A stretch of DNA of 64,000 nt from a virus. The translations under genes were made by a program, and so were the position numbers. The stretch lies in the IMG/VR virus record IMGVR_UViG_3300037418_001469, one strand, 5' to 3'. The notes below the pieces were generated by a model. It was given only the letters and a program-made list of their open reading frames with translations. It did not search any database and had not been told where the DNA came from. This document shows, in pieces, positions 3,451-55,664 of this stretch (its first letter is position 1; each line of letters begins with the position of its first letter).

Positions 3451-4140
3451 TTATATGTTAATAGTTAAATCTGCAAATATTTCTGTTAAAAACTTTGGTT
3501 TATCTCCTATATCTAAACTTCCGCCTTTACGGTAATTTATGCTATCGCAATACATATAGCCTATGATTTGATTTTCTTCATTAAAGTTGTCATTCTTACT
3601 ACCGTCAGTGTTAGTTGGAAATCCTATATTGTAATCTACAACATTCATAGTTCCTTCTTCAAACATATCGACCACCATATCGGTTATGTCGTTTCTTTCT
3701 CCGCCTCTTTCAGCCCACACTTCAACCACCCAAGTTGGATGCATCTCTTTTTTTGCATTTCCCAATTCATATGCTTCATCTTTTCTGTTCATCTCATATA
3801 GTGCTATGGCAGGATACTTAAAATCATCACTCTCAGGATTACTGCTTTCGTCATATATGTTAATTGGGCAGTATGTATAATCTACTTCGACTACATCCAT
3901 TGATGTTAACTGTGAATTAAATGATATAATTCCATTTATATAATCAATTGAATAATTGGAAATGTCTTTTAGTGAGCCATTAACATAAACATTAACAGGT
4001 GATTTAGTCTGTACACTATTATATTTAAGATTGTATATACTAAAATCTGCACTCTTTGGTCTTTCTTTGGCTCTATACCTAGATAATGCATCCTGTAGTT
4101 TATGATATAATGACAGCTCCACCAACCTAGTTTTCTCCAT
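3451..4140 (-). CDS. Putative tail terminator/completion protein
   Basis: Synteny; YPAIAL and VEVWAE..ER.DI motifs; AGGAGG RBS before ATG 4140. Confidence 0.5.
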   Translation of the reverse strand: MEKTRLVELSLYHKLQDALSRYRAKERPKSADFSIYNLKYNSVQTKSPVNVYVNGSLKDISNYSIDYINGIISFNSQLTSMDVVEVDYTYCPINIYDESSNPESDDFKYPAIALYEMNRKDEAYELGNAKKEMHPTWVVEVWAERGGERNDITDMVVDMFEEGTMNVVDYNIGFPTNTDGSKNDNFNEENQIIGYMYCDSINYRKGGSLDIGDKPKFLTEIFADLTINI

Positions 4141-4156
4141 ATGTAACACCTCCTTA

Positions 4157-4876
4157 TTAATTATTCAAATAACTTTGTACTCCACGACCAAGAATTTCTA
4201 CTACTTCTTGTTGCGAACTTGCCAACCCATCTCTGAATACATGACCTGCTTTAATTCCTGGGTGCTCTCTATGTGAAGATAAATCTTTTGCCCTATTTTC
4301 TCCTAAAAGATTTAGCAATGATTTATTATTTACCATAAAATATCCTTTTTTACTACCTCCACCTTCTCCTCCAACAGGACCAACAGAAGGACCATACATG
4401 TAGGGCTTATCTCTTTTTGTGTAAGTAATTTTAAATTCAGATGGAACAGGTTGAGAATACCTGCCACTACCAAATTCAGCTAGTATCCATTTGGGCAATT
4501 GCTGTTCTTGTTTAAGTCTAAATACAACAATTCTACCTTTGCTTCCTACTATATGGGTCTGTGTTTGAAAGTTACGCCTAGAAAATACTCCCATATTCAT
4601 GTTGTTTAACTCAAATACTCCTATGGTTAGCTTTGATTGTTTCTGTGCTACATCTCCATGCTTTCCTTCTTCTGATATCAATTGGTGAAATGCTCCTGAT
4701 TGGTCATAGTCATATCCTGACTTACCACCATCGACAACAGCATCACCAACATGTCTACCGATAGCCCTTCCTGCCTCTTTACCTGCTTGTTGCAATTCTT
4801 TACTCTTCAACATTCCTTTGAACTTAGCAGACAAGTGTTTCTCTAATTCTTCAATATTAGTAAAAGTGCCTTTCAT
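4157..4876 (-). CDS. Putative neck/tail completion protein (HK97 gp10-like)
   Basis: Synteny; AEFGSG and HPGIKA..F motifs. Confidence 0.5.
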   Translation of the reverse strand: MKGTFTNIEELEKHLSAKFKGMLKSKELQQAGKEAGRAIGRHVGDAVVDGGKSGYDYDQSGAFHQLISEEGKHGDVAQKQSKLTIGVFELNNMNMGVFSRRNFQTQTHIVGSKGRIVVFRLKQEQQLPKWILAEFGSGRYSQPVPSEFKITYTKRDKPYMYGPSVGPVGGEGGGSKKGYFMVNNKSLLNLLGENRAKDLSSHREHPGIKAGHVFRDGLASSQQEVVEILGRGVQSYLNN

Positions 4877-49691: not shown

Positions 49692-50093
49692 CTCTACTCA
49701 GCTCCTTCATAATTTGTTTAATATCTTGTAAAGACAAAAAGAAGTCACGAACTATTCCGCTATCCATTTCTTGATAGATACGAACAAACTTTCTTCCTTT
49801 GTAGTCTTCTTCGATTTTGAAATAATCTTCTGTTCCATTATGCATATAGTCGTCGAATTTGGTCATTTAATCCACCTTCCTCCCCTTCCTAACCCTCATT
49901 CTTCTCTCTATCAAATCACCACACAAGCCCCACCACGCCATAGCAACGCCAAACAAACACACGACAATTCCACCCAGGAATAAACCCCCAACAACCACCC
50001 AAGCCACAACCAATTCCCATTCCACTGTCATTTTGTCGCCTCCTACTTTTACATTATAAATATAATACAGGGCAAAAGTCAAGGATTGTCTTT

Positions 50094-50486
50094 TCACTTT
50101 TTATTTAGTTTTTGTTCAATTTTACGGACGCAATCATTTACGTTTTTATTAATCTCAGAACCACTAAAACGTAACACAGACTTATAGCCATTCTTGTATA
50201 GATAAGAACTCCTCCTTTTATCGTACTTTTTTTGGTCGGGGGAAGAATGAAAAGCCTTACCATCGCACTCAATAGCAATATTACCTATAGTCATATCTAT
50301 ATAGTAGGGACCACACCTAGTCTGAGATTTAACTTTATATCCTTTTCTTGCTAATGCATTATATAACTTCCACTCTATAGGAGATTCACATTTAGGTTTT
50401 GTATCTGTTTCTTTATATAATATCCATGCAGGGACAAGCAGTGTAGTTAGGAACATAACCACAAGTGATAAATTACCAACACCCAT
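50094..50486 (-). CDS. DUF559/Vsr-like endonuclease with N-terminal TM
   Basis: ESPIE..L, YYID, IECDG..FH, D..R, LRFSGSEI. Confidence 0.8.
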   Translation of the reverse strand: MGVGNLSLVVMFLTTLLVPAWILYKETDTKPKCESPIEWKLYNALARKGYKVKSQTRCGPYYIDMTIGNIAIECDGKAFHSSPDQKKYDKRRSSYLYKNGYKSVLRFSGSEINKNVNDCVRKIEQKLNKK

Positions 50487-52267
50487 ATATAGTCTCCTTT
50501 ATTTATTTTCCTTTATTGCCTTTAAAATTATTTTTAAATTTCTCCTCATTTCAACAAGAATCCAAATAGTTTGTAGATTAGCAAGAAACCACCCTGCTAT
50601 ATGAGACCAAGCAAAGAATGTTATTCGTTCTTTATCACTCGATAACTTTAAAAATCGTTTCATAAATTTCCTCATAGTAACCTCCTTATTAAATATTAAT
50701 AAGTGTTAATAACCAACCATAAGCAACTATATCTGTTTATGCTTAGCTATGTATTTTATTATACCCCACTTAGTCTTGCTTGTCTATGGTACTTAGTTAT
50801 GACTAACTAGGTCTCTAACTAGTCCATCCCAAGAGCTACCTATATAGGACGAGATGCAACTTCCAAAAACTAACGAGTTCTTTACTCGTTCCTCGTGCGC
50901 CCTCTACCTGCGCTCGGTCTCCCCCACGGAACTACCAAGCTATATCCTTTAGCCTGCTAAAGAGTGGTCTTTTTCTATACGACTTGTCCCTATACTATAT
51001 ATTATACCTATATTATGACACAATATACACCCTTTTATACATGTTTTTCGTTCGGAAAATGTAGAATATTTTTTCCAAAATAGGGCACGATTTTTTTTCC
51101 AAAAAGTAGTCCGAATTTTTTTTCAATTCCTATAATCAGGAATGGAATTTTTTCTATATAAGTGTAATTTTACACCCCCTAGGTACTGGATTTTTTTTCC
51201 AATAAGGCTGAAAAGTCTATAATGTATGGGTTAGGGTGCGTATATCCCACTTCGTGGGTTTTTTGGTCTTTCATTTGAATATACCCCTACCCTACCCAAA
51301 AAGACGGGAAATATTGCAGGAAATAATTCCTATAACCTATGTTATGGGAATTAAGTCAATTGTACACAATATAATTTTAGACTATAAAATCGTACTCACA
51401 ATTGTATTAATCAAAAAAACTTGATATGTAACCTAATATGCTTAGTTTAACCAATAAACAAATACCATTAGTTTACCCAATTAACAAATACAAAATTGAA
51501 TTGTGCACAATTGATTCAAACAGCTAGAACTCTATGTAGTTTACACATACATAGAAAATCTAGGTAAGTTTGTGAATGTTTTCACATACCTATATCTTTT
51601 ATTATAATAGAAAGAACATGAAATCAAGTAAATTTACTTGACAGTAAAACGTAGTAATATCAAGGCTTTGACGAGTTTCTTCCTATATAGAAAAAAGGAC
51701 CAAAAAAGAATCTTTAAAAAAGATGAAAAAATGAGCAAATAGGAGGAAATAGGAGATAATAGCAGAAAAACATGCTTTTTTAAGCTAAAACGGGCTAATA
51801 TGAACTTATTTGGAGTTTTACTTATTTTGCTCTAGGTATTATGATTGCATTGTAAGATAAATTAAATAAAGTTAAGGTTTGGTTGAGGGGGTGCTTTTCT
51901 ACCCTTCAAAAAAGTTTTTAAAAAAGGTTGCATATTTTCCTACAACCTGCGTATAATGATAGTAGCATCACAATTGATAATCAAATAGCTTATTCTTCTC
52001 ACACCTTCTATCTAGTATAGAGGGGATGGACATAACGACGTTTTATAGTCAGGTGAATGTGAGAAAAAACTTTTTAAAAAAAGTGGAATAAAGTTCTTGA
52101 CTATCACATAAGCTATACTGTAAGATGATTATAGTACCACACTAACTTAATACGCTTTACCTTACAGGGATTGTCTCCCCTACATTAACCTTCTATATAG
52201 AGGGTATCTCCAAAAAGGCTTAGTAAGAAACTTAAAAAACTTTTTGGAAAGATTTTAAAATAACGCT

Positions 52268-52296
52268 TGACAGTTTAAAACTTAACCTTTACAATT
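52268..52296 (+). promoter_or_regulatory. Strong sigmaA promoter TTGACA-N17-TACAAT, last of three tandem early promoters
   Basis: Others at ~51928 and ~52097, each with A/T-tract UP elements. Confidence 0.75.
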
Positions 52297-52301
52297 AGGG
52301 T

Positions 52302-53270
52302 AGCTTCAAAATTAACGCTTGACAGTGAATAAACAGGGTAGTGAGAAAAACCCTACTATATTGTTCATAAGTGGTAACAAGCAACCCACTATAAAAATAG
52401 GCTTGCATGAGTTCCTTGACAAGAAAATAGTTCAAAGAAGACTTACACCCTTCATGTTTTAAAGAGGGTTCGGGTCTTGTCTAACTGATACTCGCTGAAA
52501 AAGGTGATTCTTGCCTAATCTAAGTGAGTGCCAATGGGTTAGCTAATTAGTCAGATATCATGCTTGCATAGGTGATGGAAGATGTCCAAATTACAGGTGA
52601 AACTAAGGGTTTTTGACTTAGCAGGTTCTCTGGAAACGGGCTTGGTGAGTGGGTCAACAATAACCGCAATGACTAAAAGGTGGAACCCAAGCAATTCCGA
52701 GCAAAGCGACTTGATTCTAAGGTTACGAACTAGCTTGGATAGTAAGCTATACACCCCACACTGTATCACCTGAAAAGGTGGGCAGTCTGTGACTTAAAAG
52801 TAAGGGGTGAGAACTTGGCAAGGTTAGGCAGGGACGGGCGACAAGGGTAGCAAAGCGAATCTAAGAACTATTTGACAATACAGGTTAACTTAAAACTTTC
52901 TTAGGGAATATTTTATGTTTGTTGTTGAAAGTTGAAAGTTGAAAGGTTAACCGCTAAAAGTTGGGTATAGCATATCCAAGTGGGAAAAGTAACCATTCAC
53001 AATATGTGCGGTTACAATGTAGGATAGCGAGAGCGAATCCAAGGTATAGCAACCTATACCATAATTAAGGTTGTAAATTTCGGATTGTTAAGCAAGTCGA
53101 GTAGTCCAAACAATGAGTCCCTAGGGATTACCATTACAGGCACACTGAAAAAGGTTAGTCTCCTTATTAGGATAAACACTTTAGTAGGTTAGACTGTAAA
53201 GGCAAACAAGGTACTATACTCACTGGAGCACATGGTACGACTTGCTTGATTGAATCTGATACGGTTTTAT
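52302..53270 (+). ncRNA. Large ornate structured RNA/leader (~970 nt; core domain 52425-52873)
   Basis: Nested long-range helices, GC-elevated, no credible ORF. Confidence 0.65.
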
Positions 53271-53328
53271 TCGGGGGTTTATCCCTTGAATAATGCTAAT
53301 AGTCGAATATAAAACTATAACTTAGGAG

Positions 53329-53649
53329 TTGTTGAAATTGAGAAAAATTGCTAACGATACAAAATTAAACTTTAAGAAAGATTTATCTAACATTGAATTA
53401 ATGGGAATTGAACATATCTTAAACTCGTTTGAAACTGATATTGAATCTGAGGTATTAATGGCTGAGGATTACGGTTTAGCTTATACGAGTTCATCATCAT
53501 ATGCTATGTATAATGTTACGGAACATGTAGTATTTGATGGTTTAACTGTTAGTCACTTCTCTATTACTGATAATGATATGCTTATTATGGTATGTACTGA
53601 TGATGATGAGAATAATCATTGTTATGAAATAGAGGGTTCGGATTACTAG
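53329..53649 (+). CDS. Hypothetical acidic early protein
   Basis: AGGAG RBS; enclosed by 30-bp inverted repeat. Confidence 0.6.
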   Translation: MLKLRKIANDTKLNFKKDLSNIELMGIEHILNSFETDIESEVLMAEDYGLAYTSSSSYAMYNVTEHVVFDGLTVSHFSITDNDMLIMVCTDDDENNHCYEIEGSDY

Positions 53650-53765
53650 TCCTTTACCTTTTCCGCCAAATTAAAATCTAACATTCGACTGTTAGTGTTA
53701 TTCAAGGGATAACATTATCCTCTGAATAATGGTTATAGTCGAAAAATAAATCATAATTAGAAAGG

Positions 53766-54216
53766 TTGTTGAATATGTTTAACAGTAATCAAATTAAAGT
53801 AGTTAGGGAATATTTAGAAAAACGTTTTAATACAATGAATGTAACGTATATTAAATCAGGTGCTAGTGGCATACTATTCCAAGTGAATGAATTTGAGTTA
53901 GTAGTTATTATTGATACTGATTATAATGTTACATTGGGTTATACAAAATATGATGAAGTTCACACTATTAAAGGTGGTTACTCATTAGGGTTATTAGAAA
54001 ATGCATTGAAAGAAACTGAATGTGCTTATGCTTAAATGGTTAGTGATGATTACAGTCTTATTTTTGATTCTTGTACTTGGGTTGGTTAATGATGCATTAT
54101 CAGTATACAGTGTTACTCATTATATAGATGTTGTGTTTGTATCTACTATAGGAGTTGCTTTACTATTTGTTTATGTTGTATCTGTATTTGTTACAGTGTT
54201 GATTCACAAAAATTAA
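53766..54216 (+). other. Two small early ORFs (53766-54035, 54022-54216 membrane)
   Basis: Enclosed by 21-bp inverted repeat. Confidence 0.55.
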
Positions 54217-54350
54217 TTCCTTTCTTTTCCCGCCCGCAAAATTTAAGTTCTAAACTTTAAATTAAAATCATATAATCGACTATAACCGTTATTCAGTGGA
54301 TAACATTCACTGTTAGAATCAAAAAATAAATCATAGGAGCGTGCTTATTT

Positions 54351-55664
54351 ATGAAAAAATCAGATTTTCTAGAAATGAAAGTTCAAAAATCAGGGGAGTC
54401 TTTAAAGGGAATTGCAAGTCTTATTACTCAGTCTTTTGAGGTTGAAGCAATGACAAAAAGTGATGAAGATGTTTTATCTCGCAAATTAGATTCAATTGGC
54501 AAAGGTTTAGCAAGGGATAAAAGTATTAACGATGGTAATGGTTGGAATGATGATGTACACCATGATGTTTCATTAACTTCTTATACTCATGATAATGGTG
54601 GTCTATATGGTACTGAAACAAGTTCTTCACCTATTGATATCTGCAATTGGTTTGAATTGAAAAACTATTTAAATCAAATATTAGACACTTATTTACAAGC
54701 TAGTGGGAATAAAGTTCATTTTACTGTTAGAGGTTCTATGCATGTACACAATACATTATCATATACTTATGATGAGGATTACAACCTTCTTAGTGCTGTA
54801 AAATTAGACATTAACGGTGTCTACCATAATGTGGCTCGTTTTATCCTTAAGTTTATGCCCGTTATGAAATGGTTGGTAATGACTGATAGAAAAGGTGCTC
54901 GTGGGGTTCGTGGTTCATCATATGGTGATAAATTTGATAATGATAGATTATTTTCTTGGTGGTCTGAATATGAGGGTTCTATAGATACTGATAGCACATA
55001 CAGACTAACTCATTTTGATAGAAACTCATGTTTTCGAGTTATGCAAGCTAATTGCTTACACTATGAAAATCGCTTAGCAGATTGTAGTTTTAACGCTACA
55101 CACATTGGTATGTGGTTGTCAATCAATCGTGCAATAACTCTTATGGGTATTGATTTTTCAAGGAATGGTTATTTGTTCAATATCAATGGTGATGATGTAG
55201 AATTATCTAGAGACTTGATGTATCAACATTCTAGAGGTTATAAATACGTTGGCAAAGAATCTATCGAAATGCTATATAAACAGTTTGTTGGATATCTTGC
55301 AAAATATCTTAAAATTATTGGTTCACTAGAAACTATTGAAGTGATGGATAAGTTAATCAAGTGTCCTATTTCAGAATACTTAAATGAGAACAATATTACT
55401 GAGGAATATTGGAATCTAGAGATTATAGAAAAAGTGTTTAATACTAGGAATCGTGCTAGTGATACGGTTCTAAGAGATAGATTCTTAGAAGGTATCAAGG
55501 CTATGCTTATTCCTAATGCGGATAGCTTGAACGACTTCTTAGATAATACTGCAAGTTATCTAGAGGTAGAATCTAAAAAGGTTAAATCATTATATCAGAT
55601 GTTCAAACGTGAAAACGTGGATATTGAGTTCTTAGGTGGTAGACTTGTATATCTTGGGGATTAA
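54351..55664 (+). CDS. Putative amidoligase (COOH-NH2 ligase)-like protein
   Basis: SFEVE, D.SL, ETSS, GSMHVH, YENRL. Confidence 0.55.
   Translation: MKKSDFLEMKVQKSGESLKGIASLITQSFEVEAMTKSDEDVLSRKLDSIGKGLARDKSINDGNGWNDDVHHDVSLTSYTHDNGGLYGTETSSSPIDICNWFELKNYLNQILDTYLQASGNKVHFTVRGSMHVHNTLSYTYDEDYNLLSAVKLDINGVYHNVARFILKFMPVMKWLVMTDRKGARGVRGSSYGDKFDNDRLFSWWSEYEGSIDTDSTYRLTHFDRNSCFRVMQANCLHYENRLADCSFNATHIGMWLSINRAITLMGIDFSRNGYLFNINGDDVELSRDLMYQHSRGYKYVGKESIEMLYKQFVGYLAKYLKIIGSLETIEVMDKLIKCPISEYLNENNITEEYWNLEIIEKVFNTRNRASDTVLRDRFLEGIKAMLIPNADSLNDFLDNTASYLEVESKKVKSLYQMFKRENVDIEFLGGRLVYLGD

Follow-up and report, generated by a model that had tools for sequence, protein, structure and literature searches.

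The leader regions of bacterial ribosomal RNA (rrn) operons and the early regions of some phages are the closest described counterparts of the locus treated here. In Bacillus subtilis, the rrn leader contains a small 5′ hairpin, followed by the boxA-like sequence AUGAUCUUUGAAA, which is bound by NusB (PMC13753749). In the rrn operons of Escherichia coli, boxC is positioned 18 to 19 nucleotides (nt) after boxA and belongs to the leader-trailer helix; the tethering model assumes that NusB-bound boxA keeps this strand close to the RNA exit channel until the trailer has emerged (PMC10250234). A functional boxA also resides behind the tandem early promoters of phage T7 (PMC3709561, citing Savalia 2010). 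The locus described here is a gene-free region at positions 52302 to 53308 of a 64,000-nt stretch of viral DNA (IMG/VR record IMGVR_UViG_3300037418_001469; this whole stretch is the “window”), located between an array of predicted promoters and the first genes of a putative early operon and referred to as the “leader.”

The leader resembles that of a bacterial rrn operon in its tandem strong promoters with A/T-rich tracts, a 5′ hairpin, a boxA-like motif, the strand of a closing helix next to this motif, and long stalks further on (PMC13753749, PMC10250234). It differs in that ~430 nt of non-rRNA are looped out by the phage, the phage helix comprises 5 to 14 bp instead of >17 bp, the spacing between motif and helix is 2 to 3 nt instead of 18 to 19 nt, and the downstream stalks enclose protein genes; binding of Nus factors in the phage is suggested by analogy. 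The early transcript of T7 is cut by RNase III between genes, and its leader of a few hundred nt contains, to our knowledge, no reported conserved multihelix domain. Like the window phage, T7 possesses an early operon read by the host polymerase from tandem promoters with a functional boxA behind them (PMC3709561), but the host groups differ, with Bacillota-type signals in the window phage, and there is no sequence similarity. Comparison of the leader with its homologs indicates with high confidence that it is a real, conserved, plus-strand structured RNA of an uncatalogued family at the head of an early transcript.

Judged by its sequence, the region 52302 to 53308 is an untranslated, folded, and noncoding 5′ leader of the early operon. 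Leftward genes extend up to position 50486, rightward genes begin at 53329, and the 2.8 kb between them contain no open reading frame (ORF) of more than 72 amino acids (aa). For the region 52302 to 53270, the initial annotation had claimed that no credible ORF follows the promoter at 52268, and this was borne out: the longest ORFs comprise 63 aa on the plus strand and 72 aa on the minus strand, neither of them with a match to a PHROG family, whereas the first downstream ORF (53329 to 53649) does match one. Six-frame translations of 50400 to 53400 displayed no similarity to the syntenic stretch of the relative L002, gene callers predicted nothing in the corresponding part of five related contigs, and no tRNA or tmRNA was found within 50000 to 54500. 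The guanine-plus-cytosine (GC) content of the leader is 0.40 to 0.43, compared to ~0.30 in the flanks.

Relatives were reached via the 437-aa protein encoded at 54351 to 55664, for which 28 homologs with 37 to 77% identity were obtained and the contigs fetched; loci and contigs of relatives and of other matches carry L-numbers. A gene-free stretch of 1.4 to 2.2 kb upstream of the homologs of this protein was the rule among the fetched contigs. Homologous leaders were found in five other uncultured soil phages, L006 (to which L007 and L008 are identical), L013, L023, L022, and L002, while the contigs L010, L011, L012, and L034 are too short to include the leader. All six phages share one architecture: a boxA-like motif, a gap of 2 to 3 nt, the 5′ strand of the closing helix, further hairpin modules, and stalks of 30 bp by which the first ORFs are looped out. 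Collinear blastn blocks connect the window with L006 and L013 (52358 to 52405, 94% identity) and with L006 only (52492 to 52526, 86%, and 53020 to 53076, 88%). L023 is tied to L006 and L013 by further blastn blocks and shares the order of the motifs. L022 is a homolog that resembles the window, is richer in GC, and keeps the motifs in the same order; its match to the covariance model R1 described below is borderline (19 bits) and is supported by reading of the sequence.

The structure was evaluated with two covariance models, R1 (helices Pa, Pb, P5, and P6) and R2 (a four-way junction), both built only from L006 and L013, which can be aligned unambiguously by sequence. R1 found L023 at 84.9 bits with all pairs being standard pairs, and the Pa/Pb motif of the window at 24.2 bits (E value of 0.003). 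In the R1 alignment, 98.9% of the cells paired and 16 of the 26 pairs had changed on both sides, a result equaled by none of 500 shuffles; when one partner was slid by 1 to 3 columns as a control, pairing dropped to 28 to 48%. R2 found L023 at 69.7 bits, with 98.8% of the cells paired, 10 of the 29 pairs changed on both sides, and again 0 of 500 shuffles. The window, whose junction is reduced, was not detected by R2, and the other R2 matches were noise. Covariation among homologs, for which the initial annotation had proposed R-scape, was seen in these comparisons with 3 to 5 distinct sequences per helix, fewer than a test of R-scape grade requires.

Other comparisons agreed with these models to various degrees. 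The column-shuffle z value of RNAalifold was −3.97 on the plus strand and −0.89 on the minus strand, using a MAFFT alignment that had not been fitted to the structure, and ~13 G-U cells would become A-C mismatches on the opposite strand. With another MAFFT alignment, A6, the z value was not significant because L023 was misaligned, and the model-based alignment A11 was used instead. MAFFT misaligns the window in the four-sequence RNAalifold set, which was left aside, as well as the core in the pairwise alignment of window and L022. With three sequences, the consensus was limited by alignment errors, and helices were compared by hand instead; a hand-curated table of ~20 helices contains compensated positions in at least 12 of them. 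Transfer of the minimum free energy (MFE) pairs of the single sequence of L006 to L013 left 12 to 16 pairs compensated and 26 to 32 broken, with similar numbers on the minus strand, which is weak on its own, and RNAduplex on long flanks was uninformative. A secondary structure backed by compensatory changes in independent sequences, as demanded for a new RNA family, was present.

The core of the leader is a domain of ~430 nt, for which the initial annotation had listed four long-range helices (H1 to H4; Table 1) that define a domain of ~450 nt. All four are complementary at these positions, and three appear in the MFE fold, but they differ in their conservation. The closing helix H1 begins 2 to 3 nt past the boxA-like motif in all six phages and encloses 357 to 435 nt, with differing sequences and lengths of 9 bp in the window, 5 bp in L022, 14 bp in L002, 7 bp in L006, 5 of 7 bp in L013, and 5 bp in L023. 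In the six phages, covariation thus preserves the pairing between a leader strand and a trailer strand on the far side of the looped RNA, in A/U-rich helices of 5 to 14 bp. Nested, compensated counterparts of H2 and H3 exist in L022 (4007 to 4021 with 4207 to 4218 and 4035 to 4042 with 4192 to 4199, the latter with 7 of 8 bp) but not in the L006 group; there, as read by eye, the AGAGUCUA that directly follows Pa pairs with a downstream UAGACUCU. No clear counterpart of H4 was found in the relatives.

Within the domain, helix Pa of the Pa/Pb motif covaries in all five sequences, with C-G, G-C, and U-A at one position and U-A, A-U, G-C, and U-G at the next. The loop and 3′ strand of Pb are part of H2, which crosses the better-conserved Pa; H2 is therefore either a pseudoknot or an alternative fold. 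A Shine-Dalgarno-like AGGUGAU in the Pa/Pb loop had been considered as a ribosome-binding stabilizer and was rejected, since it was not conserved in the relatives when their sequences were read by eye. In the curated comparison of the window, L006, and L023, hairpin B3 has compensated changes at two positions as well as C-G pairs turned into U-G; it is also present in L022. The reduced junction of the window corresponds to the four-way junction of L006, L013, and L023: its inner stem and hairpin align with P8 and P8b of that junction, with compensated changes, and a conserved ACAUAAAACGAUA-like strand and then GGGCGACAAG follow. In place of the A-rich strand of the other phages, L022 contains the palindrome CCCAUGGG (4163 to 4190), a possible kissing or dimer contact.

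The boxA-like motif is the most widely conserved element of the leader. The initial annotation had placed such a sequence at 52410, ahead of the domain; the exact copy at 52411 is the sole one in the 64 kb, and the motif occupies the same position in the window, L006, L013, L023, L022, and L002. L002 keeps it although its 437-aa protein homolog is only 38% identical and its leader is otherwise without nucleotide similarity, and L009 and L005 contain boxA-like variants nearer to the Bacillus form. The motif lies 108 nt past the predicted transcription start, after the hairpins at 52371 to 52400 and before ~900 ORF-free nt, which is the placement of an rrn boxA, after a promoter and a small hairpin and before a long untranslated RNA. 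No −10 hexamer at a spacing of 16 to 18 nt followed the motif in any of the six sequences, as read by eye. Its form GUUCCUUGA(C/A)A agrees at 10 to 11 of 12 positions with GUUCUUUGAAAA, a 16S-23S spacer primer in mollicute papers, which we take to be a boxA.

Upstream of this motif, the best promoter of the region, TTGACA-17-TACAAT at 52267 to 52295, scored 11 of 12 in the promoter scan, with a predicted start near 52302. It is oriented like the downstream operon and closes a series of repeated promoter units; the three copies of direct repeat family D1 are spaced by 156 to 170 nt. The region 51908 to 52271 harbors three promoter units, each with an A6-CTTTTT-A6-like upstream tract and each followed by a unit of 100 to 130 nt; they look like stacked strong promoters such as rrn P1/P2 or T7 A1 to A3. 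In L006 and L013, the homolog of the second CTTGACAG box is the working promoter, with an extended −10 motif (TGnTAAACT or TGnTAAGAT), but the −10 motif of the window itself is poor. Over 48 nt, Module A behind it shows 94% identity in L006 and L013, compared to 60% for the neighboring protein; its two hairpins display no covariation because the block is invariant. No terminator-like site was found on the plus strand within 52300 to 54400.

Table 1. Positions of promoters, motifs, helices, and modules of the leader in the window. MFE, minimum free energy.
Feature	Position	Strand	Description
Tandem early promoter units	51908–52295	+	A/T-rich UP-like tracts before the −35 boxes; sigma-70 type
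Second CTTGACAG box	52316–52357	+	Alignment A2; repeat D2
Module A, 5′ block	52358–52405	+	Two small hairpins: GUGG..CCAC, 52371–52389; CUAU..AUAG, 52389–52400
boxA-like motif AGUUCCUUGACAA	52410–52422	+	General form GUUCCUUGA(C/A)AA
H1, 5′ (leader) strand of the domain-closing helix	52425–52433	+	9 bp with 52865–52873; in the MFE fold
Hairpin B3	52440–52476	+	Conserved 3′ strand GAGGGUU, then UUCGG
Pa/Pb motif	52491–52528	+	Helix Pa (52491–52496/52523–52528), GAAAAA, small hairpin Pb, AAUCUAAGUG; CUGAAAA-hairpin-AAUCUAAGUG
5′ strands of H2 (52510–52521) and H3 (52529–52534)	52510–52534	+	Complementary to 52815–52832
Variable center	~52535–52750	+	Enlarged in this phage
Reduced junction	52752–52809	+	H4, 52752–52757/52804–52809; inner stem, 52757–52763/52783–52791; hairpin CACCU-GAAA-AGGUG, 52767–52780; then ACUUAAAAGUA
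3′ strands of H3 (52815–52820) and H2 (52821–52832)	52815–52832	+	
H1, 3′ (trailer) strand, and conserved CAAUACAG	52865–52883	+	Trailer strand, 52865–52873; CAAUACAG, 52876–52883
Hairpin P9 (GGUUAAC/GUUAACC)	52883–52952	+	Three GUUGAAA repeats at 52924–52944
Module C	52956–53076	+	AAAAGUUGGG hairpin C1, 52961–52979; UAGGAUAG; hairpin C3, 53043–53060
Module D, multibranch domain	53077–53262	+	Closed by a stem of ~19 bp, 53080–53098/53238–53258
3′ hairpin whose 3′ strand is shared with arm L1 of the first stalk (30 bp)	53265–53308	+	L1, 53279–53308

Downstream of the core domain, the initial annotation had described a chain of hairpins and a stem at 53090/53238. L006 and L013 retain the stem of hairpin P9, in which one G-C pair has become G-U, and relatives in soil sequencing runs match 52910 to 52943. 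The GUUGAAA repeat of P9 may be a protein-binding repeat; runs of two to three (G[UC]UGAAA) units are also present in the otherwise unrelated leaders of L014 (~541 to 557) and L002 (~4845 to 4860). Module C is common to L006, L005, and L009 and partly present in L013, with 90.5% of the cells paired and three pairs changed on both sides, and 12 of 500 shuffles reach its covariation score. The fold of 53070 to 53315, which contains the 53090/53238 stem, is stable (MFE z value of −3.46, with none of 200 shuffles being as stable). No homolog of 53077 to 53270, which includes Module D, was found in any locus compared, so that the stem, although thermodynamically strong, has no comparative support and belongs to a phage-specific module. 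Module D also contains a second CUGAAAAAGGU motif (repeat D9, 53143 to 53161 and 52495 to 52511), which may be a second, diverged copy of the Pa/Pb motif.

The RNA probably runs on to arm L1 (53279 to 53308), which pairs with 53683 to 53712 at 30 of 30 positions, including three G-U pairs, and is kept in L006, L013, and L023. A second stalk, L2/R2, pairs at 27 of 28 positions, and the two stalks together enclose the first ORFs. By their predicted pairing, the L1/R1 and L2/R2 stalks (30 and 28 bp) would be long enough for RNase III, while H1 probably is not. A local hairpin, UCAAGGG-UUAU-CCCUUGA, forms a perfect 7-bp stem in L006 (2753 to 2790), L013, and L023, and its 3′ strand is part of L1, which makes the short hairpin and the long stalk mutually exclusive. 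If the stalk is cleaved, 53265 to 53308 is likely the 3′ boundary of the leader RNA.

The initial annotation had regarded the region as one ornate RNA of ~1 kb. A conserved structured RNA does exist, not as a single unit but as a chain of modules that differ in phylogenetic spread, with a core of ~430 nt and the last ~200 nt in this phage only. Unrelated ORF-free inserts of 0.3 to 0.9 kb are found at the position of the core domain in three relatives, L005 (4810 to 5290), L009 (800 to 1095), and L014 (510 to 1430). These insert-bearing sister phages share the promoters, and L005 and L009 also share Module C. From these sequence comparisons, the leader seems to behave as a set of exchangeable cassettes.

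Further searches contributed little to the set of leaders. Four soil runs yielded only short, low-depth contigs of relatives without usable variants, scans of viral and genome contigs guided by the protein led to L001 alone, and a pattern scan of public collections for Module C found nothing. The candidates from other pattern scans of public collections were rejected as chance matches: L003 was a GC-rich tape-measure gene, L024 to L028 represented one unrelated repeated element, and L029 to L032 as well as L033 were also due to chance.

Comparison with Rfam 15 gave no match in the region at the gathering thresholds, including those for GOLLD, ROOL, OLE, HEARO, group I/II introns, RNase P, tmRNA, 6S, EAR, and riboswitches. 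At E ≤ 10, the region 50400 to 53800 contained only mir-5879, RT-6, and RAGATH-32 (14 to 18 bits), which are noise and outside the RNA proper, and no match was obtained at E ≤ 1 in L001, L006, L013, L023, L005, L022, L009, or L014. The RNA thus continues to be unrecognized as a member of a catalogued family. With respect to the two options of the initial annotation, a large noncoding RNA in the ROOL/GOLLD class or an antitermination leader, an uncatalogued structured RNA was confirmed and a relationship to ROOL or GOLLD was not. Since boxA is followed by the closing helix within 2 to 3 nt, as in rrn operons (PMC10250234), the evidence leans to a leader over an RNA that acts independently, which is less likely.

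The leader shares with GOLLD and ROOL the size class, a location on phages, and a richness in conserved junctions and A-rich loops (PMC12286853, PMC5737381), but the respective covariance models do not match it, it is not beside tRNAs, and it would be made as an operon leader and not from a stand-alone gene. Staphylococcus phage K produces lnc001 and lnc002, noncoding RNAs of 0.6 to 1.2 kb, one of which was reported from its own early promoter (PMC9241854). Size, early noncoding character, and a large Bacillota phage as source (a probable one for the leader) are common to these RNAs and the leader, while those of phage K adjoin tRNA genes and have no similarity to the leader. They gave no match to R1 and contained no boxA-like motif, CUGAAAA..GG, or CAAUACAG, with one isolated AAUCUAAG in L036. 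The nut sites of lambda, put of HK022, and EAR of B. subtilis are likewise cis-acting RNAs that head long operons and modify the elongating polymerase, but they comprise 30 to 120 nt, and for the leader neither an Rfam match nor an N-like protein nor a boxB pairing partner came to light.

A mimic of an rrn leader is the explanation preferred here, put forward tentatively by analogy as a substantial possibility rather than a probable one: Nus factors would be loaded at boxA for processive, chaperoned transcription, and the folded leader would later be cut off at the stalks. By the same analogy, the phage probably borrows the transcription machinery that its host uses for rRNA. The order of the elements agrees with such a function, with tandem host-type promoters, 5′ hairpins, the boxA-like site, the leader strand 2 to 3 nt further on, the looped ~430-nt domain, the trailer strand, hairpin modules, and ORFs looped out by stalks of 28 to 30 bp. 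The NusB-S10 complex of the host may bind the boxA-like site on the nascent RNA, so that the RNA polymerase would become an rrn-type antitermination complex, which could carry transcription across the long untranslated stretch into the early genes. By keeping the leader strand close to the RNA exit channel, this complex may also favor folding of the closing helix and of the domain inside it, and RNase III-type cuts in the downstream stalks would then part the folded leader from the early mRNAs.

Several observations weigh against this interpretation or the data beneath it. The folding energy of the 500-nt domain is unremarkable, with z values of −1.14 for the window, −0.78 for L002, and −0.36 for L022; a single sequence alone, with a z value of −1.14, proves nothing, and it is the comparison that decides. 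This comparison covers 4 to 6 distinct sequences in all, and the pair counts for R1 and R2 come from alignments fitted to these models. The closing helices are A/U-rich and shorter than the >17 bp needed by the leader-trailer helix of E. coli (PMC10250234). The form GUUCCUUGA(C/A)A agrees with the B. subtilis boxA consensus GAUCUUUGAAA at 8 to 9 of 11 positions, and this consensus may not be that of the actual host. The motif includes TTGACA and could be a −35-like site or a site for another protein, and L005 and L014 have no boxA-like motif beside their leader domains. Because Rho is dispensable in B. subtilis (PMC13753749), the need for antitermination is weakened. Finally, ~12 nt suffice for antitermination, which leaves the conserved 430-nt fold unexplained.

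This last point has to be considered in the light of another function, namely, that the RNA, either its ~430-nt domain or all ~1 kb of it, is functional itself. Freed at the stalks and abundant, it would act in trans, for instance, by sequestering a host protein or defense system as a sponge or decoy, or form a ROOL- or GOLLD-like self-assembling particle, and boxA would only ensure its production. Selection acts on the fold and on the unpaired A-rich motifs CUGAAAAAGG, AAUCUAAGUG, GGACAUAAAACGAUA, and CAAUACAG, which is far more than a spacer or antitermination needs, the high identity of Module A relative to the neighboring protein points in the same direction, and the versions of L002 and L022 contain many GAAA-type loops. 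Cassette-like swaps, as with the inserts in L005, L009, and L014, are a pattern common at host-interaction loci, the 30-bp stalk directly 3′ could release the RNA, and phage K makes early noncoding RNAs of similar length (PMC9241854). The RNA has, on the other hand, no similarity to any Rfam family, including ROOL, GOLLD, and OLE, and without a terminator of its own it would be made as part of an mRNA. A function of its own, the main alternative to the leader mimic, is rather unlikely. A more specific version of the same idea, still a little less likely, describes the domain as a new RNA class that is folded as the very first product by the boxA/Nus chaperone of the host, released at the stalk, used against the host as a decoy or RNA-only assembly, and exchanged as a cassette; such an exchange of domains would account for the fact that sister phages have unrelated inserts at this site. 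The putatively cleavable stalks would also agree with a cis-acting platform for stability and processing of the mRNA without Nus factors, in which the 5′ structure shields the early transcript from 5′ exonucleases and endonucleases and positions the RNase III cuts, with the likeness to boxA being coincidental or due to another binder. 5′ stabilizers are well known for early RNAs of Bacillus and SP82 phages, the 5′-terminal hairpins of the leader are highly conserved, RNase III-type stalks follow the structure, and the match to boxA is only partial. A small 5′ hairpin would do for this purpose, though, with no need for a covarying 430-nt domain, and the 12-nt motif, kept even in the diverged L002 and always abutting the closing helix, argues for a specific recognition site; such a platform is improbable.

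The nucleotides shared by Pa/Pb and the crossing H2, both of which are comparatively supported, could alternatively belong to a sensor or switch, with the two conformations set by a ligand or protein and controlling read-through; the 3′ hairpin and arm L1 form a second competing pair. This is a far weaker candidate: no terminator or sequestered ribosome-binding site is tied to the two conformations, H2 occurs in the window and L022 only, no riboswitch family matches, and a pseudoknot accounts for the same data without switching. It is very improbable that the region is no RNA at all but a DNA-level element, such as an origin, a packaging site, or a protein-binding array, or else a decayed coding sequence in the divergent intergenic zone. 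A divergent region of 1.8 kb with many repeats and T-tracts does adjoin the leader, but against this option stand helices with strands 430 nt apart, G-U pairs, and compensated changes, the strand asymmetry in the RNAalifold test, the missing translated similarity between relatives, and insertions and deletions among them throughout the stretch aligned in A2.

The phage from which the window originates is uncultured, large, and AT-rich (34.6% GC) and carries a tRNA array. Identical copies of the window DNA are present in soil and rhizosphere metagenome runs, among which no RNA run was listed, and a nucleotide search found no relative of it among the INPHARED phages. The terminase displays only ~30% identity to those of Bacillus phages, and the host is probably a member of the Bacillota. 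The 437-aa protein that served as a synteny anchor has no Pfam or PHROG match and contains invariant His/Asp/Glu motifs (NDDxHxD, SxHVHN, and HxENR); its neighbors are genes for amidoligase, GGACT, DUF6011, and RNA polymerase alpha C-terminal domain-like proteins. Judged from these motifs and neighbors, it looks like an uncharacterized enzyme from a module for early host takeover. Across the intergenic zone, on its divergent side, the minus strand carries a small gene of the REase_MTES_1575/DUF559 endonuclease-like type (50094 to 50486), which is kept in several relatives, for instance, in L005 (2725 to 3114) and L022 (1164 to 1583).

To understand the biological meaning of the leader, what is known has to be separated from what is new. 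Early transcription antiterminated at boxA is already known; the domain of 430 nt closed by leader and trailer strands and the RNA family are new. If the mimicry of an rrn leader is true, phages of Gram-positive soil bacteria would start their early program with a complete imitation of the leader of an rRNA operon, of which T7 and lambda have so far shown only the boxA part. The large structured RNAs described here, with a core of ~430 nt and conserved junction motifs, add an uncatalogued family, and the leader may serve as a test bed for whether the rrn antitermination complex can chaperone non-rRNA and for what the large RNAs made first in an infection are used.

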